In this document: in pieces, positions 2,066-55,769 of the stretch | Layout of the letters: each line of letters starts with the position of its first letter | Numbering within the stretch: position 1 is the stretch's first letter | Source: a virus | Taxonomy: Duplodnaviria; Heunggongvirae; Uroviricota; Caudoviricetes | Strand: one strand, 5' to 3' | DNA length: 64,000 bases | Virus record (IMG/VR): IMGVR_UViG_2597490230_000001 | Coordinates: 25,917 to 89,916 of that record | Made by a program: the position numbers and the translations under genes | The notes under the pieces: generated by a model | Databases searched by the model: none | What the model was told of the DNA's origin: nothing | Seen by the model: only the letters and a program-made list of their open reading frames with translations

Positions 2066-3292
2066 ATGGAAGACTCTTGGAGGGATATCAACGGCTATGC
2101 TAAGGCAAGTGGTGTTGATGCTGACCCAGAGGTCCAGAAAGCTATCAGAGAGGCAATGAATGCTGGTAACAGAATGCGTTCCCAATTCGCCCCATTAAGT
2201 GATGCGGCTGAACGTAAACTGTATAACATCATTGATAGAGCCGCTGATAATGCGAACAGAGTTCCAGAACAAGCTCGTACAATGCAAGACTCTTGGGATG
2301 AAATTAATGGTTATGCCCAGGCACTTGGTGTTGAAGGTGAGCCAGAGATTCGTAAAGCCCTTAAGAAAGCAATGAATCCGGGTAACAAGAAACGTAATGC
2401 GTTTGGCCCATTAAGTCAAACGAAAGAGCGTGAAATGTACAACGTGATTGACGACTTCATCAAAGGTCAGGAAGAAGCCTATGAGGCTGCTTTGGCTAGA
2501 CCTAAAACTGAGCAACCTGCTGAGTTGGGTGAATGGCGTAAAAGAGTTGCTGACTTGAAGAAACGTCGTGCGAGAGTTTCGAACTTCAATGAATGGCAAA
2601 ATCAGAAAGCCAATGCTCGTAAAAAGGCTGCGGAAGAGAAGATTCGTCAGGAAGATGTTCGTAAAGAGAGACTGGAAGCTGAAGCTAAGAAGGCTGAGGA
2701 AGAGGCTAAGAAAGCCGACGAGGTTGTCGAAGCTCTGAATGAAGCCAAAGCTAAACAAGTTGAGGATGCTAAAGAAGCAGTTAGAGAAGAGTTTGCTGAG
2801 AAGCAAATGGATAATGATGTTATCACTGAAGCTGGTACTAATCTGTTTGAGAAATTGGCAGACCGTGTACATAACACAGATTCACCTGATTATGTCAAAC
2901 TCAAAGCTGTTATGGATGTTATTTCCGAAAACTTGACAACTGGTCCATTCCGCAAGGGTGAACGTGACCCACAAAGAGCTCTGCTGAATGCTCAGAAGGC
3001 GTTGTTTGATGGTTTACAGCGTAAAGCTGAATTCCCTAACAACCCAGAACTCTGGTTGTCTACCACCGAACGTAATGCCATCGGTGAAGCCTACACCGGT
3101 AAGGTAGGTACTAAGGAATATGGTAGCATGTACCAGAAACTTCGTGCAGGTTTGTTTGAAGATGAACAAACTCGTGAGTTCGTGAAGTTCCCAATTGAAG
3201 CTATTAACAAGAAGATTAAACATCTTCGTAAGCGTCAAGAGGGTGTCAGAGACCTCAGCGAAGGGGCAATCAACGTTCAAGATATTAAGTAA
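2066..3292 (+). CDS. hypothetical protein with internal tandem duplication of about 72 aa
   Basis: MEDSWRDINGYAKA...ERKLYNIIDRA repeated as MQDSWDEINGYAQA...EREMYNVIDDF. Confidence 0.6.
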   Translation: MEDSWRDINGYAKASGVDADPEVQKAIREAMNAGNRMRSQFAPLSDAAERKLYNIIDRAADNANRVPEQARTMQDSWDEINGYAQALGVEGEPEIRKALKKAMNPGNKKRNAFGPLSQTKEREMYNVIDDFIKGQEEAYEAALARPKTEQPAELGEWRKRVADLKKRRARVSNFNEWQNQKANARKKAAEEKIRQEDVRKERLEAEAKKAEEEAKKADEVVEALNEAKAKQVEDAKEAVREEFAEKQMDNDVITEAGTNLFEKLADRVHNTDSPDYVKLKAVMDVISENLTTGPFRKGERDPQRALLNAQKALFDGLQRKAEFPNNPELWLSTTERNAIGEAYTGKVGTKEYGSMYQKLRAGLFEDEQTREFVKFPIEAINKKIKHLRKRQEGVRDLSEGAINVQDIK

Positions 3293-3365
3293 TTGTAAGG
3301 AAGGTGTGTAGTGGTCACTAATATAAATGTAACCATTACACATCACTCCTTTAAGGTACTTAATA

Positions 3366-3497
3366 ATGAACGAATACAGACTTCCTTCAGGTAAAAATAA
3401 AGACTTCTGGGAACGCAACTCTGAATCTCGTAAAGAGAGTAAAATTGCCAAGAAGAAGGAAGATAAGAATCAATGGACTCCATACCGGAGTTGGTAA
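3366..3497 (+). CDS. small basic hypothetical protein (43 aa; not in the ORF track)
   Basis: ATG-initiated ORF MNEYRLPSGKNKDFWERNSE... immediately followed by a hairpin plus T-run. Confidence 0.25.
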   Translation: MNEYRLPSGKNKDFWERNSESRKESKIAKKKEDKNQWTPYRSW

Positions 3498-3516
3498 CTA
3501 AATTAGGCTCCCTCGT
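3487..3516 (+). terminator. rho-independent terminator
   Basis: ggctcc-ctcgtg-gagcc hairpin followed by tttcttttt. Confidence 0.5.
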
Positions 3517-3545
3517 GGAGCCTTTCTTTTTATTAGGGTATACGA

Positions 3546-3974
3546 ATGACCAAGAAGCGTTATTTTAAAAAGAAGGAAGCATCTCTTAAAGGTACTGGAT
3601 ACGATTCCTACCTGGAGAAGCATGTCCACCAAAACCTATTACCAAATGCTCGATTCCACGATAAAAGTGACAAGGTTTCTTATACAGTGTCTCACACTTA
3701 CGAGCCAGACTTTGTGGTTGAAAAGAATGGTAAAATCTACTTCGTTGAAACAAAGGGAAGATTTCGAGATTCTACCGAAGCTAGAAAATACATCTTTATA
3801 AGAGACTTTCTGCCAGAGAATGCAGAGCTAGTTTTTGTTTGGGAGAAAGCAGGAACTGTATTCCCATTTGCTAAAAAGAGAAAGGATGGTACAAAAGCCA
3901 CCCATGAGGAATGGGCCGATAAAAACGGCTTCAGGAATTGGGTTCAAACCAACTTTAGAGAGGATGTGCTATGA
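3546..3974 (+). CDS. endonuclease I (T7 gp3-like Holliday junction resolvase)
   Basis: HTYEPDF and FVETKG motifs, overall similarity to T7 gp3 as recalled. Confidence 0.7.
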   Translation: MTKKRYFKKKEASLKGTGYDSYLEKHVHQNLLPNARFHDKSDKVSYTVSHTYEPDFVVEKNGKIYFVETKGRFRDSTEARKYIFIRDFLPENAELVFVWEKAGTVFPFAKKRKDGTKATHEEWADKNGFRNWVQTNFREDVL

Positions 3975-4390
3975 TTTTTACAATCAAAGCTTGGGTAAAG
4001 CAAGTTATACTGGGAGCAGGTATTGTAGCAATACTCTGCCTCTTTCCACTCGGATATAAATATGGGGTTGATGCTGAGAAGGCTGAACAACAACAGAAGT
4101 ATACCAAAGGTCTTGAGAATCTCATTGAATCTTATGGCAGTACTCAAAACCTGTTGAATGCTATTGCTCAGAATCAACAAGTAACTTTATCACTGATTCG
4201 AACTAAACAGGGTGAGGTAAAAGAAGGTGTTCAAGAATACAATAGGACTAATGAGTCTAATGTTCATGGTCTTGATGATAAGTGGGTGCAACTCTACAAC
4301 CAATCTATCAACACAGTTGGGTCTGAATCCGGAGTCAAGGTTGATGGAAAGGGCGGAGCCAAGAAGGACGCTGCAAAAGGGTCAAAGTAA
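3971..4390 (+). CDS. Rz: i-spanin (Rz-like)
   Basis: N-terminal TM segment, coiled-coil Q-rich periplasmic part, ATGA start overlap with upstream gene, Rz1 embedded in the +1 frame. Confidence 0.6.
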   Translation: MIFTIKAWVKQVILGAGIVAILCLFPLGYKYGVDAEKAEQQQKYTKGLENLIESYGSTQNLLNAIAQNQQVTLSLIRTKQGEVKEGVQEYNRTNESNVHGLDDKWVQLYNQSINTVGSESGVKVDGKGGAKKDAAKGSK

Positions 4391-4505
4391 TGGTGTTCAA
4401 CTTTCTATAATCACTGATAACAACATGATTTGTGAAAGAGAAATCAACAAACTCACTGATTTGCAAGATTGGGTATCAATGTTGAAACATGTACCGAAGG
4501 ATTAA
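4227..4505 (+). CDS. Rz1: o-spanin lipoprotein (Rz1-like), embedded in and extending beyond Rz
   Basis: Signal peptide with lipobox LMISGC, Pro-rich, in the +1 frame inside Rz. Confidence 0.6.
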   Translation: MFKNTIGLMSLMFMVLMISGCNSTTNLSTQLGLNPESRLMERAEPRRTLQKGQSNGVQLSIITDNNMICEREINKLTDLQDWVSMLKHVPKD

Positions 4506-4508
4506 GAG

Positions 4509-4540
4509 AAAGGGGATTAATTTCCCCTTTTCTTTTATAC
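4509..4540 (+). terminator. rho-independent terminator ending the rightward late unit
   Basis: aaagggga-ttaatt-tccccttt stem-loop followed by tctttt. Confidence 0.6.
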
Positions 4541-4577
4541 AGTGTAAGATAATAAGAAAACCAGTATTTAGTTCCCT

Positions 4578-4598
4578 TTATTATATGTGGATTTACTG
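4578..4598 (-). promoter_or_regulatory. copy of the conserved promoter-like motif (CAGTAAATCCACATATAATAA) at the convergence point
   Basis: Near-identical to motifs at 32911, 45863, 58205 and 63983. Confidence 0.35.
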
Positions 4599-4599
4599 T

Positions 4600-4935
4600 T
4601 TACTTTTTAGCCACGTAAATGGTCTTTTTAATCTCTTTTGGAACCACTTCGAAGTACTGAGGGTCAGCATATTCCCAATCAGTGAAGTAGCTACCAGAAC
4701 GACCAATCACAACTGAACAGAATACAGTCTTTTCTTTATCAGCGAAGATTGATTCTTGATACTCATACTTTCCTTCGTTAATCCAATCACCCTCTTCGAT
4801 GAGAATAACATCGTCGTCTTTATCCACTTCAACGCAATCATATTCATCATAGGTGTTTTTCAGGAACTCTTCAAGCTGTTCGTAATTCATAAGATTTAAT
4901 CCACTCTTCAATTGTTGGAGGAGAAACTTTTTCAA
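4600..4935 (-). CDS. hypothetical protein
   Basis: 111 aa ORF, last gene of the leftward block. Confidence 0.5.
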   Translation of the reverse strand: MKKFLLQQLKSGLNLMNYEQLEEFLKNTYDEYDCVEVDKDDDVILIEEGDWINEGKYEYQESIFADKEKTVFCSVVIGRSGSYFTDWEYADPQYFEVVPKEIKKTIYVAKK

Positions 4936-5611
4936 TTGCAGCTCTCATTATAGCTGCTCTGTGTAATTTGTCCTGAATCTCAGGAACTTTGACTCTGGTT
5001 TTAGGAACCATAATCGAAACATAAGAACTGTCTGCCGAAGCAAACGGATATTGACTCAAGGCACGAACATCCAAAGCCCTCAAACCATGAATCTTAACAT
5101 CAAACTTGTTCTTAATGTAGATGAAGTCAAATACCTCATCCATACGCTCACGCCAAGCCTTAGAACGAATTGATTTGTGTTTACCCATACAACCTATGGC
5201 AACTCTATCAAAACGCTCACAGAGCCTTCCTAGGCGCTCTAATGAGCCTTCACTATGCCAGACTGGAACAGCCTTACTGATTATTTCTTCGGGGACTTTC
5301 GAGAGGAGTTCGTCGTTTTCCTCATCAGAGCCACCAATAACATCAGGGACAATAAACCAGCTGATACGACCAAAAAGAGAGCTAACCCAGCTATAATACT
5401 TAGACCAGTGCTTGTCCCAATCAACAATTTCACCCTTCCTTGTGGATTTCATCCAAACAGAGAAAGCACCATTGTCAAGAACAAGTTCACAATCTAACTG
5501 AACAATCCTTTTGATTTGGTCTGGTCGATGAAAGGAGACTAGGGCTCCACCTCCACGGTAGAGCGCCTTAATCAACTCATCACCTTCACCGCCCCAAACT
5601 CGGACCTCCAT
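4871..5611 (-). CDS. tRNA-guanine transglycosylase-like protein (putative DpdA-type DNA transglycosylase)
   Basis: VLDNGAFSV resembles the TGT LTDSGGFQV motif; FIVPDVIGG, AIGCMG and IHGLRALD resemble TGT barrel motifs; no Zn subdomain. Confidence 0.4.
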   Translation of the reverse strand: MEVRVWGGEGDELIKALYRGGGALVSFHRPDQIKRIVQLDCELVLDNGAFSVWMKSTRKGEIVDWDKHWSKYYSWVSSLFGRISWFIVPDVIGGSDEENDELLSKVPEEIISKAVPVWHSEGSLERLGRLCERFDRVAIGCMGKHKSIRSKAWRERMDEVFDFIYIKNKFDVKIHGLRALDVRALSQYPFASADSSYVSIMVPKTRVKVPEIQDKLHRAAIMRAAIEKVSPPTIEEWIKSYELRTA

Positions 5612-5817
5612 GAAAGTGTACTGTCAAAACGGTAACTCCTCAAGCTCTTTCTTGACTGCAATGGCTACTGCTTCATCACAAGATGGGCATGACCACATTT
5701 CACCACGCTTTGTTCCGTATCCACTTTCAGCAGCTATTACTGGAACCTTAGCACTACAAGTGCAATTAACATAGCCATCATCGTCTTGTTTTGAAAGGTA
5801 AATCCACAGGCTGTCTT

Positions 5818-6093
5818 TTAGCCATTGACCAATTCCTTCGCCTGTCGCTTAAATGTCTCCAGACCTTCCGTGTCGTCACAGTAGTACAACTCCGCTTCAA
5901 TAAGTGCGTAATGGATAACTTTCAGTAAATACCTTCGATGAAGACCATTCTTATTCTTATGACGAAAGGCATACTTAATCATGTTACACTGTTGGAAATC
6001 CAACTGAGGGTTGGCATGATAGAACTGAATTGGTTGAATTGTGTTGGAACCTTGATAATGAGCCCCACCAACCATAGTGTTTAAAGCACTCAA
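5818..6093 (-). CDS. hypothetical protein
   Basis: 91 aa ORF co-oriented with neighbours. Confidence 0.4.
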   Translation of the reverse strand: MSALNTMVGGAHYQGSNTIQPIQFYHANPQLDFQQCNMIKYAFRHKNKNGLHRRYLLKVIHYALIEAELYYCDDTEGLETFKRQAKELVNG

Positions 6094-6394
6094 GCTTCAA
6101 CCTCCATTGTTTCAATGTAATAGTTATGTTTATGAATACCTAAAGATTCTGCTTTAGCTCTTGCACCTTCTTCTGTGTGGTGCAGACTGCGGACCATAAA
6201 AGCATACTCGCCTTCAACAGACTCTTCTACCATTAATGCGAAAACAACCTGAACCATTATATTACCTCAATGCCCAAGAGATGCCAAGTGCAAATTCTGT
6301 TTGCTTAAGACGTTTGTTAAGACGCCAAGCGTAAATTGTTAATCCGAGGTTGCAAGCAAATGTAACCCCGAATAAGAATTGATAAACTTGTAAC

Positions 6395-15400: not shown

Positions 15401-16243
15401 TCACCCACGTTCCATGTGTCCTTCAATTAGTGCCAGAAACTCTGGATTAGTGAAGGCATCTTCTGCTGTTGTGAGGAAGTATTGGATACCATTGGACTCC
15501 ATTTGATACCGTTCACTCATGTCAATTTGAGGATTAACCACAACCAACTTTGCACCACGGTTAATGGCTGGGAACAAGTCCCAAATAAAGTTGATTACTT
15601 GGTTTGAAGCCCCTACCAATATGATAATATCATCAGGCATTATATCATCAAACACATTATACATGTCTTGATACTTTGGAGCCAATTCACCAAAGAAAAC
15701 AACATCAGGTTTACACCAGTGATAATCATCTGGTTCAATCTGAGTGTAACCAATGTTTACACATTGTTCTTCAGAACCCTCTTCGAGTTTATAGCGAAGA
15801 TAATTCAATCTGCCATGAACATGAATAACTTCCTCTTCAGGAATTCCAGCACGTTCAAGCAAATCATCAACGTTTGTTGTGACGTTTTTAACACGACCTT
15901 TATAACGTTCAAACCATTCAGCAATACGGAGGTGAGCCACATTGGGCTCAACTGTTCCTAGCTCTTCACGGCGCTTGTTGTAGAAGGTGTGAGTTTTGTG
16001 GTAGAAGTTTCCACGGAAAGCTTGGATGTTACAAACCTCTTCAAGGTCATACTCATCCCACATAGCTTTACCGCTATCAGTATCAGTGCGGAAAGCACGG
16101 ACTCCACTTGCAACAGAGAGTCCTGCCCCGCTGACTACAATCAGGTTAGGCAAAGGAAACACTCCCATTAGTTTGGAATACAGCTTCAGCAAACCCACGA
16201 GGAGTTGCAGAGCGAATATTCTTAGTCTTAAGTGACTTACCAC
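15401..16243 (-). CDS. Sir2-family NAD-dependent deacylase / ADP-ribosyltransferase
   Basis: GAGLSVASGVRAFR, NVDDLLERAG, HVHG, VVFFGE and VVVNPQ Sir2 motifs; the Zn-ribbon Cys quartet appears incomplete. Confidence 0.7.
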   Translation of the reverse strand: MVSHLRLRIFALQLLVGLLKLYSKLMGVFPLPNLIVVSGAGLSVASGVRAFRTDTDSGKAMWDEYDLEEVCNIQAFRGNFYHKTHTFYNKRREELGTVEPNVAHLRIAEWFERYKGRVKNVTTNVDDLLERAGIPEEEVIHVHGRLNYLRYKLEEGSEEQCVNIGYTQIEPDDYHWCKPDVVFFGELAPKYQDMYNVFDDIMPDDIIILVGASNQVINFIWDLFPAINRGAKLVVVNPQIDMSERYQMESNGIQYFLTTAEDAFTNPEFLALIEGHMERG

Positions 16244-21435: not shown

Positions 21436-21603
21436 ATTCTCCCAATAATCGTCTACATCAGATTCATCGAATCTTTCCCCGGGGACTGTTTCTTTACAGC
21501 GGGGGCATTCATAATAGTGGGAATAATCATCCGTACTTACTTGTTTCATTGGAATAAAGCACCAGTCACATTCCACTGACCGGCGTGTGACTCGACGATA
21601 CAT
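21436..21603 (-). CDS. small Zn-ribbon protein (56 aa; not in the ORF track)
   Basis: CDWC...CPRC; start is coupled to the macro-domain gene stop via TAATG. Confidence 0.35.
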
Positions 21604-22103
21604 TATACCGAATACTCCACATAAGTTACATCAAACATTGGATAACCAATTCTTTCATTGTCGAAGATTTCTTCGATATGTTTTGAGATTCGTTCCCAAT
21701 TACCACCACCCAAACCACAACCGATTTTTGGGAAACCGATACGATAGGTTTGGAAGTCAACAGCATTAGCCTTAAGTTCATTGGCCATCATGTTGAGTGC
21801 ATGAACTAAAGCCTCTTCATCAGTACCATAATTACCCTGGGTTTTATCCCAACCGTACTGACCATAGAGGTTGAAAACCAAAAGACCACTTTTCTCTTTA
21901 CCTACAGAGAAATTACCAAGCTTAGCTTTGTCACCACGATTGGTATCGGCATCTGCACGGAAAGCAGAGTAAAAGTTGTCAGCAATCTGAGGGGCAATGC
22001 CACTTCTCATTGTACAGAAGCAGTTAGCCTGATGTGCAATCACATCAAACTGACCTTCTTTAGCCAGTTGAATCAAGTTGCCCCGAATTGTCTTCAGGCT
22101 CAT
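21603..22103 (-). CDS. macro-domain (ADP-ribose binding/processing) protein
   Basis: VIAHQANCFCTMRSGIA and GFPKIGCGLGGG macro motifs. Confidence 0.8.
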   Translation of the reverse strand: MSLKTIRGNLIQLAKEGQFDVIAHQANCFCTMRSGIAPQIADNFYSAFRADADTNRGDKAKLGNFSVGKEKSGLLVFNLYGQYGWDKTQGNYGTDEEALVHALNMMANELKANAVDFQTYRIGFPKIGCGLGGGNWERISKHIEEIFDNERIGYPMFDVTYVEYSV

Positions 22104-45884: not shown

Positions 45885-46048
45885 ATTGAGTCCCCAGATG
45901 ATTCCCTGAATCAATCCGAATATACAACCAGTAATAGCAATTGATACTGCTGAGTTTGGGAGACCAACCATGTACAAGATAAATGTCATGAACAAGGTAA
46001 CACCAAAAGTTGCAACAGAGGAATAACCAAACAATCTGCAAGCAGTTA

Positions 46049-46363
46049 TCATTTCTTTTTCAACCTCAGTGAAACATCAAGAACATAACAAGCGTGATAT
46101 GAAAGAGAAGCAACGGTACGACCCAACTTCTCAGCCATTTTAGTTCTTGACATGCGACCTGCCCAACGACGGACATAAGCCTCTTCTTCTTTTGTCCACA
46201 CCTTTCTGTGGAATGCGATTGAGATTCCATAATTGGAAGCTGTCCGCTTTATAGTTTTAACAGTGACGCCGAAGTGTTCAGCAATAGTTTCTGCTGAAAC
46301 CTTCGTACCCATTTCAGTTAGTTCATCTAACCGTTCATCTGTCCAGAACTTTCTACGACCCAT
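46049..46363 (-). CDS. HTH DNA-binding protein (putative regulator)
   Basis: Two HTH-like segments (VSAETIAEHFGVTVKTIKR; MSRTKMAEKLGRTVASLS). Confidence 0.45.
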   Translation of the reverse strand: MGRRKFWTDERLDELTEMGTKVSAETIAEHFGVTVKTIKRTASNYGISIAFHRKVWTKEEEAYVRRWAGRMSRTKMAEKLGRTVASLSYHACYVLDVSLRLKKK

Positions 46364-46499
46364 TTTAACCTCTAACGATTTAATAAAGGGCTCCGAAGAA
46401 CCCTTGATAAATATTCAGAGAGAGTCTACATCAAAGAACACGAACAAAACGAATGCAAATGCGAACACTGCAATCGTTAAGGCCAAGCCCCAATCCATA

Positions 46500-46721
46500 T
46501 TAACCCTCCCTTTCGACGTTACCGCTCACTTTTACTTTGAAATGCTTCTTCAAAGTTTCAATGGACATGTAAGCCAGTACAACATCGATGAAAGCACCGA
46601 GCACACTGGCATTACGAACATCGTAAATAAACAGGAAAGTCAGAATAACTAAAAACACCATATGTGCATACGGTGTGTTCAGGAAATCTGCAACCTTATT
46701 CAACTTAGCTTTCCAGCTCAA
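46500..46721 (-). CDS. small membrane protein
   Basis: 73 aa with two hydrophobic helices. Confidence 0.45.
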   Translation of the reverse strand: MSWKAKLNKVADFLNTPYAHMVFLVILTFLFIYDVRNASVLGAFIDVVLAYMSIETLKKHFKVKVSGNVEREG

Positions 46722-48388
46722 AAGAGTCCCTTAGCTACGGCTTCTTTTACCGTGCGGTTAACGTATGATTCGATACGCGCCAGCACATCATCACCACTTT
46801 CAGTGAAGATTTCACCGTTGCGGTAAATCGTTACCAGAGCAGTGTCAGCTTCTTCTTCAACAGACGCTTGGTCTTTGAAAGTCCAGTTGCCGTCTGCATC
46901 AACGAAGTGAGCCATTAAGCCTTTGGCAGACTTCTTGGTTCCATCGTCAGTTGCAGGGTCTTTGAAGATTTCACGAGGTTCACCATCAACGATACCCCAT
47001 GTCGCCTTCATCGCCCAACCCAGAGTGTCACGAGTGACATACTGATAGGTGAACGAGCCGATACCCAGCACGACGTTGCTAGAGGCAAAGCCCTTAGCTT
47101 TCAGACGCTGGAAGATTTCCAGTTGGCGAACCAGGGAGATTGAATCGCCGTAAATCAGGCCGATGTGGTCGTCAAGAACTTTGTAGCCCTTGTTGTTGAT
47201 ATGACCACCAAAGGTGTCCCAGAGAACCTGAATAGCACCTTTAACTTCTGCTTCTGACTTTTTAGTCACGCAGAAATAACCGCCATTAAAGTAGGCATAG
47301 GTGAAATACTCTTCACCAATCTGCACTACATACGCACCATCTTCCGGCAGGTCGTTAGCATCATCCATCATCCACTGACGTGCAATGTTCTCGTCTTTGA
47401 AACGAGCCACAACAGTGAAGCCACAGATGATATCTTCCGGAACACCAGAGTCAGGGCGAACAACCAGCTTACCATCACGATTCATGATGATATCTTTGAT
47501 GCTCGGCAGGGTGTTGGTCAGAACAGACCAGAAGTCCCAGGTATCGGATACGACCGACAGGATGCCAGTTGGATACACTTCGGTGAGAAGTCGGACGAAC
47601 GTTTCACGCTCATCATCTTTACCACCCATGCACATCACTGAGTGCTCAGTTGCATTTACCGAGCCACCACGGCCAGCTTCAGTCGGGTAGTGTGCATTGA
47701 AGCGCTCACGGGCAAACACAGAGTCAGTACCGTTGTAAGCCATCATGTGACCAACACCGGTCAGGCTGTTAGCCCACATACCCATGCTGCCACGAGCCGC
47801 GAAGTCGTGACCCTGCCACTGAACGTGCAGGTTGTTGTCGCAGGTCAGTTCCGCGAAGTATTCACTCATCAGACGGAAGCTGAGAGCAGTTGTTGCTGAG
47901 GTTGCAACCGGCCAGAGTTCAGCACTCATCAGAGTTTCCAGATAGTTCGGAATCCAGTAGAAACTGTCGATGGTGTTGATGATAGTGATTGGCGGGCACT
48001 TCACCTGAACAACGTTGCCTTCCGGCACGGCTTTAACATGAATCGGCAGGTAGCCGAGGGCGTGGAGGTCGTAGAACGGCTTCACATCGAAATCAGTACC
48101 GAGGTAACTGTTCACGGAAGCGCGGAACTTCTCAACCACTTCATGAGCGTCCTGGTTAAAGAAGTTGTTCTGGAACTCGTCAACCAGCCATTGCAGCATG
48201 AAGGTCTGAGCACCAACCCAAAGGATGGGTGAACCTTCATCACCACGCAGCGCTTTGAAGAACGGAGATTTCAGGAACTTGTTAGCACGAGGCGTGAAGT
48301 TACTGTAAACGCGGGTAGTACCCTTTGGATACTGAGCGCGGTGGCCGAGTTTATAGCCGTCAATTGCAAAGATAGGACTAATAACCAT
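46718..48388 (-). CDS. nicotinamide phosphoribosyltransferase family protein (NAMPT/NadV-like; possible Namat of the NARP1 NAD-reconstitution pathway)
   Basis: 556 aa, NAPRTase/NAMPT family features (FAIDGYKLGHRAQYP N-terminus); adjacent to a Prs-like gene. Confidence 0.8.
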   Translation of the reverse strand: MVISPIFAIDGYKLGHRAQYPKGTTRVYSNFTPRANKFLKSPFFKALRGDEGSPILWVGAQTFMLQWLVDEFQNNFFNQDAHEVVEKFRASVNSYLGTDFDVKPFYDLHALGYLPIHVKAVPEGNVVQVKCPPITIINTIDSFYWIPNYLETLMSAELWPVATSATTALSFRLMSEYFAELTCDNNLHVQWQGHDFAARGSMGMWANSLTGVGHMMAYNGTDSVFARERFNAHYPTEAGRGGSVNATEHSVMCMGGKDDERETFVRLLTEVYPTGILSVVSDTWDFWSVLTNTLPSIKDIIMNRDGKLVVRPDSGVPEDIICGFTVVARFKDENIARQWMMDDANDLPEDGAYVVQIGEEYFTYAYFNGGYFCVTKKSEAEVKGAIQVLWDTFGGHINNKGYKVLDDHIGLIYGDSISLVRQLEIFQRLKAKGFASSNVVLGIGSFTYQYVTRDTLGWAMKATWGIVDGEPREIFKDPATDDGTKKSAKGLMAHFVDADGNWTFKDQASVEEEADTALVTIYRNGEIFTESGDDVLARIESYVNRTVKEAVAKGLF

Positions 48389-48396
48389 TTAGTGAC

Positions 48397-49281
48397 CTAT
48401 AGATAGTTGAGTGTACGCATAAGATGGTCGCAGTTGTAAATGCGAACCTGCGGGTGGTCTACGTGAGGCTTCTCACAGAAGGCCACAGAATCAGTGGTGT
48501 AGATTTTATCAACACCATTTTGAAGCAGATGGTCGTAACCCTTGCTGAAGATTCCGTGGGTAACTACCAACTCAACCGACTTAGCACCTGCCTTCTTCAA
48601 GGCGGTAGCTGCACCGATAAATGTCATACCACCGTCGCAAATATCATCAAAGATAACGCAACGACGGTCTTCCAGCGATTGCAGAGTGCTATCAACGATA
48701 CGCATACCGACGATTTCGCCAGTCTCTACATTACGCTCTTTGTCCAGAACAACTAGCCCGATGTTCGGGATAACTTTCTGAATGCCGTGAATCTTTTTCA
48801 AAGCACCGGCGTCCGGAGAAACGATAACAATATCGTCACCCGCTGTCAGGCCGTAGTGCCAAGGGTTCACTTGCAGTAAACGATTCTGAGGAATGTTTAC
48901 GCAGTTTTCAATCAAACCTGGGCCAACGTCAGAGTGAGCATCAAACACCAGAACTGAATCGAGTTCAAGTGCATTCAACTGATTGGCGTACACCTTTAAG
49001 GTAAACGCATCGTTGGTGACCATTCGGCGGTCTTGCCGTGCATACGGCAGGTAAGGCATAAACAGTGTGATACGAATACGCGGGTTAATCCAGCGAAGCA
49101 CACTGACTACGCAAGCGACCTCAAAGAATTGATTCTGAGGGTCAGTATCCGCTGTTACACGGATAATGGCACTTTCAACATGGCGAGGGAGAACCCCAGA
49201 CAGTTTTAAGCGCAAAGCACCGTCACTGAATTTACCAGTGTCGATTGCCACATCGAGAGCATTAACCGAAAGATTAATCAT
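48397..49281 (-). CDS. ribose-phosphate pyrophosphokinase family protein (Prs-like; possible ADPR-PP synthetase Adps)
   Basis: 294 aa PRTase-type fold with FDAHS and IVIVSPDAG motifs. Confidence 0.75.
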   Translation of the reverse strand: MINLSVNALDVAIDTGKFSDGALRLKLSGVLPRHVESAIIRVTADTDPQNQFFEVACVVSVLRWINPRIRITLFMPYLPYARQDRRMVTNDAFTLKVYANQLNALELDSVLVFDAHSDVGPGLIENCVNIPQNRLLQVNPWHYGLTAGDDIVIVSPDAGALKKIHGIQKVIPNIGLVVLDKERNVETGEIVGMRIVDSTLQSLEDRRCVIFDDICDGGMTFIGAATALKKAGAKSVELVVTHGIFSKGYDHLLQNGVDKIYTTDSVAFCEKPHVDHPQVRIYNCDHLMRTLNYL

Positions 49282-49340
49282 GTTGCCTCTTTGTTGTTGG
49301 GGTGGTAACCACTCTACCAGCCTGGCCTAAAAACACGGGA

Positions 49341-49610
49341 ACAGAAAATCCACATAAAAGGTTTACTCCAGGATTTTAAGAGCCATACAAGCTATCGCTT
49401 GAGAGACGCCATCGGGGCGTCTGTATGAGTCTTATTCAACTAATTCTTGAAACGGGTCACTAGACCTCACTGATTCTTGACCACTGAGTCTTGAGTCTTA
49501 CTCCGGTGCTGTTTTACGGCTGCCCGGTAAGCCCCTAGGTTTCAATTAGCAGTTGAATGCCCCTATCGCTGAGGCTTGCGTTCTGTTTTAGTTTTAACGG
49601 CAGGTGATTA
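49341..49610 (+). ncRNA. candidate non-coding RNA in a 340-bp ORF-free gap, preceded by a plus-oriented variant of the promoter-like motif
   Basis: ACAGAAAATCCACATAAAAGG at 49341-49361; perfect hairpin agacgcc-atcg-gggcgtct at 49404-49422; tgagtctt direct repeats; T-rich end. Confidence 0.25.
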
Positions 49611-49620
49611 CCGAGTTTGT

Positions 49621-50262
49621 TTACGCCGCTGGGACTTCGATTTTAGTCGCAGCGTTTGTTTCGTTCAGAGCAATATCAACTTCCTGCTCGAACTCTTCGA
49701 TACCGGACATCTCTTTGGTAATGAAGGCTTGCAGGTCAACAGGCGCAACAATCGAAGGAGTACCACGCTTACGCATGTCTGCAATCGTGTTTTTCACCAG
49801 TTCTTCGTTGCCGTTATCAGCCTGCTCTTTCGAGTAAGCGTCAATACGGTTCTGTAACTCGGTTGTCTTTGTACCGACCGTCGCCGATACTGAACGGAGC
49901 TGCATCTGAAGACGAAGCAGGAACGCTTTACGACTTACGACGAATTTCTTCATCTCAATCGCTTCTGCCAGCGTGTAGTTTTTGCCACCAATCGTCACAG
50001 TAGTTTCGGCATTAGCCTTAACCAGAGCGCGTTTGATAAGCTCACGACGCTGAATCAAACCTTGAAGTGAGTCGAAGTTTGACTTCAACGCAACTTTCAG
50101 GGATTCAACATCTTTGAAAGTGTTATCGTTTGGCTTAGCCACTTCGGCTTCACCGAGGACAACACTAACAACTGGTTGAGCAGCCGCACGTTCAATGCGA
50201 CCACCCAGTGATTTTAATTCTACCAACGCACGAGCGATGGAGATTTTATTCGTTTCCGACAT
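49621..50262 (-). CDS. hypothetical protein
   Basis: 213 aa ORF. Confidence 0.55.
   Translation of the reverse strand: MSETNKISIARALVELKSLGGRIERAAAQPVVSVVLGEAEVAKPNDNTFKDVESLKVALKSNFDSLQGLIQRRELIKRALVKANAETTVTIGGKNYTLAEAIEMKKFVVSRKAFLLRLQMQLRSVSATVGTKTTELQNRIDAYSKEQADNGNEELVKNTIADMRKRGTPSIVAPVDLQAFITKEMSGIEEFEQEVDIALNETNAATKIEVPAA
49992..50004 (-). repeat. copy of co-oriented 13-bp motif (ACTACTGTGACGA)
   Basis: Plus strand tcgtcacagtagt. Confidence 0.6.
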
Positions 50263-50967
50263 TTAGGAAGCCTCTTTCTTTTTGAAGTTACGGTGCTCCA
50301 TGTCCAGGCCTTCGATTTCACCCATAATGCGGTACACGCTGTTAAGGGTTTCAACGAACCAGACTTGAGCTATGGAGTAGATTTTAACCACACTGCTCGT
50401 GTGAATCCACGTTGCATCACGGAATGGATGATTGCCTGTTGTTTTCTTATCATCCCAGATATTACCCCAAACAATCGCACGTGATTTGTCGTGGTTATAT
50501 TGAATGATTGAGTGTGACAGACGAGCTTCGAAGAACTGTTGCTTGACCGGCTTAATCAATCCGGTAAGCAGTGGATTTTCATCAGCAGTAAAGGATGCAA
50601 ACGCTTCACGCTCGTAAAGGACTTTGAAGTCACGAGCGAACTGCTGAAGACGTTTAGGGTTAAGACGAAGAACTGCTTTCTGGAAGCCACGTAACTGTTG
50701 CGGGTGCATCAGTTGCATAGAACCATCCAGACCAACACGACTACCAACTGAAGTCGCCATGCAGAGATATTCAGCACGGCCACACCATACATACAACAAC
50801 TGACTGATTTCATGTTCAGTGAAGTCAGTGTACTTAACCAGTTCTTGAGTAGTTCCGATTGCCAAAGGCTCAGGGAACTTCTTGTTGAAAAGATGTGGAT
50901 ACTTTTCAATCAGCTCTGGCATACGGCGTTTGTAGAAATCATATTGAACAGGGGAAACAGGACGCAT
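50263..50967 (-). CDS. ProQ/FinO-domain RNA-binding protein
   Basis: LIEKYPHLF...PLAIGT...LLYVW...YL...G..RVGLDGS matches the ProQ/FinO N-terminal domain pattern. Confidence 0.55.
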   Translation of the reverse strand: MRPVSPVQYDFYKRRMPELIEKYPHLFNKKFPEPLAIGTTQELVKYTDFTEHEISQLLYVWCGRAEYLCMATSVGSRVGLDGSMQLMHPQQLRGFQKAVLRLNPKRLQQFARDFKVLYEREAFASFTADENPLLTGLIKPVKQQFFEARLSHSIIQYNHDKSRAIVWGNIWDDKKTTGNHPFRDATWIHTSSVVKIYSIAQVWFVETLNSVYRIMGEIEGLDMEHRNFKKKEAS

Positions 50968-55693: not shown

Positions 55694-55769
55694 TGGAGGG
55701 TAGCACCCGATTCGAACGGGTGTGATTCGGATTTGCAATCCGATGCCTAAGCCACTCAGCCAGCTACCC
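55694..55769 (-). tRNA. tRNA-Cys (anticodon GCA)
   Basis: Acceptor GGGTAGC/GCTACCC, anticodon stem-loop TCGGA-TTGCAAA-TCCGA, T-arm ACCCGTTCGAATCGGGT, CCA encoded. Confidence 0.6.

Follow-up and report, generated by a model that had tools for sequence, protein, structure and literature searches.

Results

Salmonella phage 7-11 is predicted to encode a NARP1 operon

Two adjacent genes of Salmonella phage 7-11, gp120 and gp119, very probably form an operon of the nicotinamide adenine dinucleotide (NAD+) reconstitution pathway NARP1. They lie in a 64,000-nucleotide (nt) stretch of DNA, here called the window, which was found to be 100% identical to the phage 7-11 genome (HM997019.1/NC_015938.1; 89,916 bp) when window positions 46000-50000 were compared by megablast. 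The window is the final 64 kb of that genome, and each window position, as used throughout, equals the position in the phage 7-11 record minus 25,916. Phage 7-11 is classified in the Grimontviridae, genus Moazamivirus.

In the proposed pathway, which follows the mechanism published for NARP1, the gp120 product (Adps) would transfer the beta,gamma-pyrophosphate of ATP to the 1'' hydroxyl on the distal ribose of ADP-ribose (ADPR), yielding ADPR pyrophosphate (ADPR-PP) and AMP. The gp119 product (Namat) would then use a NAMPT-like catalytic core to join ADPR-PP to nicotinamide, releasing NAD+, and its adenine-binding clamp is predicted to confer a preference for ADPR-PP over phosphoribosyl pyrophosphate (PRPP). 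Both substrates are what the SIR2, TIR, SEFIR and DSR NADases leave behind, so that the pathway would act only once a defence system has cleaved NAD+, and the NAD+ restored afterward would permit phage replication. We infer the enzymatic activities and the counter-defence phenotype of the 7-11 pair from the homologues of phages SPbetaL1, Bas63, Fado, ICP1 and Gary, for which alone they have been demonstrated. For 7-11 itself, what was established is homology to these proteins, the structure of the operon, its signature residues and its persistence in related phages.

Both open reading frames (ORFs) were present where the preliminary description had placed them: namat (gp119) at 46718..48388, encoding 556 amino acids (aa), and adps (gp120, SaPh711_gp120) at 48397..49281, encoding 294 aa, both on the minus strand. 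The adjacency reported there was correct, but its order and gap were amended. With both genes on the minus strand, transcription reaches the Prs-like gene before the NAMPT-like gene, and the spacer is 8 nt (48389..48396, minus strand; TAG-gtcactaa-ATG, from the adps stop codon to the namat ATG) rather than 9 bp. Transcription is leftward throughout the 30-90 kb arm of the phage 7-11 genome. No terminator was found in the 8-nt spacer, and the two genes are therefore probably co-transcribed. They are probably also translationally coupled, in keeping with a good ribosome-binding site (AAAGAGG) before gp120 and virtually none before gp119. The gp119-gp120 region was also found by megablast in phages SE131 and SeKF_80 (96-97% nucleotide identity) and pSal-SNUABM-01 (84%), and the pair is kept in all three. 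In pSal-SNUABM-01 the annotated coding sequences of adps and namat overlap by 1 nt.

The family labels given earlier to the two proteins held in Pfam, NCBIfam and PHROGs. The gp119 protein matched Pfam NAPRTase and NAMPT_N, NCBIfam PRK09198 (492 bits; cutoff 405) and PHROG 448 (1e-180), and gp120 matched Pribosyltran_N, Pribosyltran and Pribosyl_synth, TIGR01251 (131.6 bits; cutoff 113) and PHROG 619 (5e-85). RefSeq names them 'nicotinamide phosphoribosyl transferase' and 'ribose-phosphate pyrophosphokinase', respectively. The pairing had been described as present in many large phages, and its wide occurrence was confirmed: by tblastn, gp120 homologues were found in 1,523 of 50,697 phage records, and Namat stands beside 97% of Adps-clade genes (Osterman et al., 2024).

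The gp119 protein carries the selectivity clamp of Namat

Namat keeps the NAMPT catalytic core and owes its ADPR-PP specificity to an adenine 'selectivity clamp' composed of a helix and a variable loop (Lan et al., 2026, PMC12774641). In the same study, the clamp helix was assigned the Namat-only consensus GS-X-phi1-X-phi2-X-phi3-TRD, in which X is aromatic, and the stacking residue of the clamp loop was either Arg itself at the third position, or Lys or Tyr followed by the stacking residue, as in the K-W of Bas63. When gp119 was aligned by MAFFT with the SPbetaL1, Bas63 and ICP1 Namat proteins and with human NAMPT (its sequence checked against PDB 2gvg), the selectivity-clamp helix (SCH) was found at aa 444-454 (47027..47059, minus strand) as GSFTYQYVTRD. 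It agrees with the consensus, the X residues being F, Y and Y, with T, Q and V as phi1, phi2 and phi3. The corresponding segment of human NAMPT is GSGGGLLQKLTRD, so that the clamp aromatics F446, Y448 and Y450 of gp119 are G385, L387 and K389 in the human enzyme. The selectivity-clamp loop (SCL), TPRANKFLKSPFFKALRGDEGSPI, was located by alignment at aa 32-55 (48224..48295, minus strand). Its K37-F38 falls at the stacking position, aligned with R40 of SPbetaL1 and K42-W43 of Bas63, in agreement with the published rule, and F38 is predicted to stack on the adenine.

The comparison was extended to 22 SPbetaL1 Namat positions, comprising the residues listed by Lan et al. as NAD+ contacts together with the catalytic His and the clamp residue Y394. 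At 19 of these, gp119 was identical to SPbetaL1 Namat (D10, Y12, F196, R199, D222, A246, H249, R311, D313, G414, D415, G444, S445, F446, Y448, Y450, T452, R453 and D454). The three that differ are S190, which is A197 in gp119; A362, which is S416 and is also Ser in Bas63 and ICP1; and R40 of the SCL, which is K37, followed by F38. The NAMPT-like catalytic core was therefore found intact, with F196, R199, D222, the catalytic H249, R311 and D313 of gp119 matching F189, R192, D215, the catalytic His, R306 and D308 of SPbetaL1. Overall identity was 48% to SPbetaL1 Namat, 47% to ICP1 and 43% to Bas63. The top match among solved structures was 9w5x/9w5w (E 9e-129), compared to approximately 5e-53 for mammalian enzymes including human NAMPT. 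The PDB label of the 9w5x/9w5w chain reads only 'nicotinamide phosphoribosyltransferase', and its numbering (D13, Y15, R40) fits the published SPbetaL1 Namat.

At 556 aa, gp119 is longer than SPbetaL1 Namat (491 aa) because its SCL has 11 additional residues and because its stretch from the RPDSG strand to the FGG motif holds an insertion of approximately 50 aa (aa ~324-380; 47249..47419, minus strand). This insertion is absent from human NAMPT and from the SPbetaL1 and ICP1 Namat proteins. The distance from RPDSG to FGG is 77 aa in gp119, 76 in the validated Gary Namat and 105 in Bas63, but only 28-29 in SPbetaL1 and ICP1. The insertion and the longer clamp loop were considered as novelties and rejected: the validated Gary and Bas63 Namat proteins have insertions at the same site, of the same length in Gary and longer in Bas63, and the insertion is thus a known length variant.

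The gp120 protein scores as Adps rather than as canonical Prs

The active site of Adps has been defined for the ICP1 enzyme (Liu et al., 2026, PMC13586617), and the substitutions K185A in ICP1 and K162A in SPbetaL1 abolish activity in the published enzymes. The equivalent residue of gp120, by alignment, is K181, the first residue of the catalytic beta-hairpin KERNVETGEIV (aa 181-191; 48709..48741, minus strand). This Lys column was invariant in all 119 homologues. A basic residue is conserved there in canonical PRPS too (Liu et al., 2026), and K181 is therefore necessary but not discriminating. The remainder of the hairpin follows the Adps pattern K-x-R-(N/D)-x-x-T-G-(E/D)-I, compared to KRRPRANVSQV in Prs. 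The PP (donor) loop, DDICDGGMTF (aa 212-221; 48619..48648, minus strand), is identical to ICP1 Adps at D212, D213, I214, C215, D216 and F221; the loop reads DDICDGAASF in ICP1 and DDICDGGRTF in Bas63, and DDMIDTGGTL in E. coli Prs. Acceptor-groove residues kept in gp120 are F18, R82 (ICP1 R87), H116 (H121), D157 (D161), D212, D213 and D216. Among the 119 database homologues, the near-invariant Adps-type columns were the K-x-R-(N/D)-x-x-(T/S)-G hairpin, C215, F221, H-S and T-H-G, at which E. coli Prs has KRRPRANVSQ, I, L, H-A and T-H-P.

Profile scores pointed to the same side. In NCBIfam, gp120 passed only the broad TIGR01251; it scored 128.5 bits on PRK01259 (cutoff 297) and no more than 100 bits on every equivalog model (cutoffs 296-536), and so fails canonical Prs membership by these cutoffs. 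As controls, the Bas63, SPbetaL1 and ICP1 Adps proteins scored 98-138 bits on TIGR01251, also below the Prs equivalog cutoffs, compared to 529.5 bits for E. coli Prs. A hidden Markov model (HMM) was then built from the four validated Adps proteins (Bas63, SPbetaL1, ICP1 and Gary) and set against a Prs HMM, which contained unverified human and B. subtilis Prs sequences and an E. coli sequence checked against PDB 4s2u. The gp120 protein scored 204 bits on the Adps HMM, compared to 108 bits on the Prs HMM. Each validated Adps, scored in a leave-one-out control, gave 114-273 bits on the former and 61-84 bits on the latter, whereas E. coli Prs gave 105 and 393 bits, respectively.

Before 2024 the two genes would have been read as classical nicotinamide salvage, in which gp120 is a PRPP synthetase, gp119 is a NAMPT making nicotinamide mononucleotide (NMN), and host NadR or NadD completes NAD+. 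The RefSeq, Pfam, NCBIfam and PHROG family names say as much, gp120 does pass the broad TIGR01251 Prs subfamily cutoff, and published Namat retains approximately half of the NMN-forming activity of human NAMPT with PRPP (Lan et al., 2026). In contrast, gp119 has the adenine clamp that NAMPT lacks, gp120 falls far under every Prs equivalog cutoff and is 96 bits nearer to the Adps than to the Prs profile, and Osterman et al. (2024) label the Namat 'Adps-associated'. In addition, no NMNAT, NadM, NadR or PnuC was found among the 167 annotated features of the 7-11 genome, a search made at the annotation level and without a profile scan of every ORF. An NMN adenylyltransferase in the same genome, by which NARP2 is recognized, is thus absent from the annotation, and with it a NARP2-type completion of salvage. 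We consider classical salvage an improbable account of the pair.

That gp119 and gp120 are decaying or inactive passenger remnants is scarcely credible. Both ORFs are full length with all catalytic residues intact, and the pair persists across four distinct phages whose nucleotide identity falls as low as 84%.

Several observations nevertheless weigh against a NARP1 assignment. Two ligand contacts of ICP1 Adps, F92 and F223, are not kept in gp120, which has M87 and G223; they are likewise not conserved in the validated Bas63 or SPbetaL1 Adps, and Bas63 also has M at the F92 position. The C-terminus of gp120 is merely partly shortened relative to Prs, where Adps is characterized by loss of the alpha11-alpha12 module: 14 residues follow the shared VR strand motif, compared to 27 in E. 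coli Prs, and a short helix remnant (DHLMRTLNYL) may persist. Global identity is no higher to ICP1 Adps than to E. coli Prs (29% in both cases), and identity to Bas63 Adps is 37%. Raw identity was for this reason rejected as a test of clade, and the assignment of gp120 rests on signatures and profile scores. Namat enzymes also make NMN from PRPP, so that some classical salvage activity is possible, and no experimental study of phage 7-11 itself was found in the literature searched. A search of a PDB copy with gp120 gave Prs entries only (best E 1e-24), with no ICP1 Adps structure among the matches; the ICP1 Adps sequence used here was taken from GenBank.

The NARP1 interpretation offered in the preliminary description is supported by the clamp aromatics of gp119 and by the Adps signatures of gp120 together with its scores below the Prs cutoffs. 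The residue-level comparison with canonical PRPP synthetase and NAMPT, which had been named there as one way to overturn it, was carried out and came down on the Adps and Namat side. The pair had also been catalogued already. HM997019_00126 is listed in Supplementary Table 1 ('Adps homologs') of Osterman et al. (2024, bioRxiv 10.1101/2024.02.11.579819), with Salmonella as host and 'Namat within 10 genes: Yes', and HM997019_00125 is listed in their Supplementary Table 2 as an 'Adps-associated' Namat homologue. The NARP1 pair of 7-11 is therefore not a new finding; it is among the 859 NARP1 phages counted in that work.

An unlinked macro-domain protein is a candidate third enzyme

When the RES-domain defence aRES breaks down NAD+, it leaves nicotinamide and ADPR-1''-phosphate, the latter in a form that is of no use to NARP1. 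In 15% of NARP1 operons there is a Macro-domain phosphatase, Adpp, that regenerates ADPR, as validated for Vibrio phage Gary (Osterman et al., 2026, bioRxiv 10.64898/2026.01.28.702374). The arrangement is termed NARP1-AP, and its census covered genes within two genes of NARP1 only (Osterman et al., 2026). In 7-11, no Macro match was found in the genes flanking the pair (gp116-gp118 and gp121-gp122). A macro-domain protein, gp071, is encoded at 21603..22103 (minus strand), approximately 25 kb from adps-namat in a block of replication and nucleotide-metabolism genes, and is a candidate unlinked third enzyme, its membership in the pathway being suggested by BLASTP homology to Adpp. The absence of phage 7-11 from Table S1 of Osterman et al. 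(2026) is explained by the position of gp071 outside the two-gene range of the census.

The match of gp071 to Pfam Macro was marginal (22.7 bits; cutoff 22), and PHROG 335, 'phosphatase', was matched at 4e-53. Against the validated Gary Adpp (KNV71_gp137), BLASTP gave a full-length alignment (aa 3-159 on aa 2-158) with 35% identity and an E value of 7e-34, and all family-invariant residues (H24, N27, G35, A37, G63, P125, G128 and W136) are present in gp071. Among nine NARP1-linked macro proteins sampled from the same Table S1, seven scored 95-108 bits against gp071 and the two most divergent scored 63 and 49 bits. Other macro proteins scored 69 bits (T4-type Tk.4) and 61-63 bits (Felix O1-type and Ag3-type). 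A crude neighbour-joining tree placed gp071 among the NARP1-linked macros. In the PDB, the gp071-family profile matched the TARG1/OARD1, DarG and Poa1p macro clade (E from 1e-22 to 1e-10); because several macro types of one clade were matched, homology to solved structures alone leaves the substrate of gp071 unfixed.

These findings raise the possibility that 7-11 runs a 'split' NARP1-AP, in which gp071 as Adpp would feed the distant adps-namat genes, giving resistance to phosphorolysis by aRES as well as to ordinary NADases. We put this forward tentatively, as a reading of the sequence that could well be right but for which the balance lies slightly on the other side. The main caveat is that the macro family of gp071 is also found in Tequatrovirus phages such as AR1, which are not known to carry NARP1. 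The split layout is not unique to 7-11. The closest gp071 homologue among those retrieved, gp089 of Cronobacter phage CR3 (50% identity), comes from a phage that also encodes NARP1 and lies approximately 78 kb from adps-namat (positions 271-801 of retrieved locus L008 and 11551-14283 of L019, respectively). A function of gp071 as an anti-DarT factor was also considered and is kept as a minor rival only: the similarity to the DarG macro domain is weak (29 bits in NCBIfam; cutoff 250), and the orphan anti-DarTG1 factors described in the literature are NADAR rather than macro-domain proteins.

The Sir2-family protein resembles CobB-type deacylases

A Sir2-family protein, gp056 (15401..16153, minus strand; Pfam SIR2, 2.6e-24), was examined as context for the pair and found to be a CobB-like sirtuin. 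The coordinates given for it previously, 15401..16243, correspond to an ORF that exists, but this is the longest ORF, with a GTG start, and it extends into the methyltransferase gene upstream; in RefSeq the coding sequence begins at 16153, and residue 39 of the long ORF is where the SIR2 domain starts. The protein matched E. coli CobB (1s5p) at 1.6e-19 as well as NCBIfam deacylase models. The GAGxS, T-x-N-x-D, catalytic HG and FGE motifs are kept, and most of the Zn cysteines are absent. No PADLOC defence SIR2 model was matched by gp056, its nearest relatives being CobB-type deacylases. The sequence favours an NAD+-using deacylase or ADP-ribosyltransferase over a defence-type NADase. Homologues of gp056 were found in 995 phage records, with rV5-type genomes, a 'T5-like' phage and large Vibrio phages among the matches listed, and many phages with such homologues may come from lineages in which some pathway of NAD+ reconstitution is present.

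A functional link between gp056 and NARP1 is speculation. More speculative still is the idea that an O-acyl-ADPR product of the phage Sir2 might be processed by gp071, closing a phage-encoded NAD+ cycle. The broader ADP-ribose and NAD handling suggested in the preliminary description was thus borne out in part: the macro ORF at 21603..22103 (minus strand) is real and encodes an Adpp homologue, a connection not made there, whereas the evidence does not bear out membership of the CobB-like gp056 in the pathway.

The same two proteins bear on whether the pair might be a working ADPR-to-NAD+ recycler that serves mainly as housekeeping for the phage's own NAD+ consumers, such as the Sir2 product after macro processing, and not for counter-defence. 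In established sirtuin and macro-domain chemistry, sirtuin products acted on by a macro deacetylase would leave ADPR and nicotinamide. The genome encodes both a CobB-like sirtuin whose catalytic His is intact and a macro protein that falls in the OARD1/TARG1/Poa1p clade, and Enterobacterial chromosomes have the same pair beside the NAD regulator gene nrtR, suggesting housekeeping use in bacteria. On the other hand, the three loci lie 25-31 kb apart and are not co-organized, every tested phage shows sensitivity to NAD-depleting defences upon loss of NARP1 (Osterman et al., 2024), and the two roles are compatible with each other. A mainly housekeeping role is judged quite improbable.

The adps leader, a terminator-like hairpin and neighbouring genes

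A non-coding leader of 339 nt (49282..49620, minus strand) precedes adps, ends in the ribosome-binding site AAAGAGG and is conserved in all relatives. Compared to the flanking 4 kb, leader identity was higher in SE131 (99.1% vs. 96.4%) and SeKF_80 (97.6% vs. 96.8%), and about level with the flanks in pSal-SNUABM-01 (83.5% vs. 83.9%). The leader folds more stably than shuffled sequence (z-score -2.65), and compensatory changes were observed in three local hairpins, two of which contain the octamer AGCGATAG, found nowhere else in the window. A consensus scan of the 339 nt showed no sigma-70-like promoter. The fully conserved leader stretch TTTATGTGGATTT was tried as a recurring phage promoter motif and rejected, as it had 28 matches in the window with 28.7 expected. 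Rfam gave no match to the leader and, over the whole window, yielded only tRNA-Cys. This single tRNA-Cys (GCA) gene, at 55694..55769 (minus strand) in the early region, was called in agreement by ARAGORN and Rfam; five further tRNA genes of phage 7-11 lie outside the window.

Downstream of the pair, a consensus scan revealed a putative terminator-like hairpin at 46655..46676 (minus strand), a 9-bp stem followed by TTTTAGTT, which starts 42 nt past the namat stop codon. It lies inside gp118, a small hydrophobic ORF of 73 aa with a TTG start (46500..46721, minus strand) that overlaps the namat stop codon (TTGA). This leaves two readings, a spurious gp118 ORF or a hairpin that acts as an internal attenuator. 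On the upstream side, gp121 (49621..50262, minus strand) is a 'tail fiber protein' in RefSeq; it had no Pfam match, its pSal-SNUABM-01 counterpart is named 'septicolysin-like', and the tail-fibre label seems questionable. The second gene upstream of adps, gp122 (50263..50967, minus strand), encodes a protein with a ProQ/FinO RNA-chaperone domain (Pfam, 4e-9).

Discussion

With NARP1 present in approximately 4% of sequenced phages, 7-11 is one more instance, and RefSeq still carries the Prs and nicotinamide phosphoribosyl transferase names for gp120 and gp119. The Namat motif GS-X-phi-X-phi-X-phi-TRD and the Adps motifs DDICDGG-x-TF and K-x-R-N-x-x-T-G-E tell NARP1 from true Prs and NAMPT by sequence alone. 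The unlinked Adpp-like macro gene is the only new angle of this analysis, and a modest one. If the split arrangement is true, the estimate of 15% for Adpp, which considered two genes on each side, would be too low. Operon-based NARP1-AP censuses can miss phages with a macro phosphatase gene elsewhere, and this would alter estimates of the number of phages able to escape aRES-type defence. It also has a bearing on which therapeutic Salmonella phages are picked for hosts with NAD-depleting systems.

Among known systems, the NARP1 loci of Bacillus phage SPbetaL1, E. coli phage Bas63 and Vibrio phage ICP1 have the same two-gene order, adps followed by namat, as 7-11 (Osterman et al., 2024; Lan et al., 2026; Liu et al., 2026). 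Also in common are the clamp motif and NAD+-contact residues of Namat and, in Adps, the catalytic Lys, the DDICD donor loop and the K-x-R-N-x-x-T-G-E hairpin. Phage 7-11 differs from these in belonging to a separate lineage (Grimontviridae, Moazamivirus), and its Namat has an SCL 11 aa longer than that of SPbetaL1 and an insertion of approximately 50 aa after RPDSG, as in Gary and Bas63 and not as in SPbetaL1 and ICP1. NARP2 (Nampt and Nmnat; Vibrio phage KVP40) has in common with 7-11 the restoration of NAD+ by a phage and a NAMPT-family enzyme, but gp119 bears the Namat clamp, and not NAMPT residues, at the clamp positions. NARP3 (PnuC and NadR; Bas30) is, like the 7-11 pair, a phage NAD+ restoration pathway.

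Outside its own phage lineage, the named top matches of gp120 showed 41-46% identity, and many of them were chromosomal proteins of 283-286 aa from Kosakonia, Cronobacter, Enterobacter and Citrobacter; some metagenome proteins were 47-61% identical. The nrtR/prs-like/nadV-like loci on these Enterobacterial chromosomes have the same gene order as 7-11. In Kosakonia (positions 3082-6364 of retrieved locus L014), an adps-like gene is followed after a 12-nt gap by a NAMPT-like gene of 496 aa with GSFTYQYNTRD, and is preceded on the opposite strand by a gene for an nrtR-like Nudix regulator. Unlike the 7-11 pair, such loci are chromosomal, lie beside an NrtR gene, encode Namat without the 50-aa insertion and have no known counter-defence role. 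Bacterial NARP1 has been reported by Lan et al. (2026), and from its sequence the Kosakonia-type locus fits that description. In relation to the NARP1-AP of Vibrio phage Gary (Adps, Adpp and Namat; Osterman et al., 2026), phage 7-11 encodes homologues of all three proteins; in Gary the macro gene lies between adps and namat, whereas in 7-11 it lies approximately 25 kb away.

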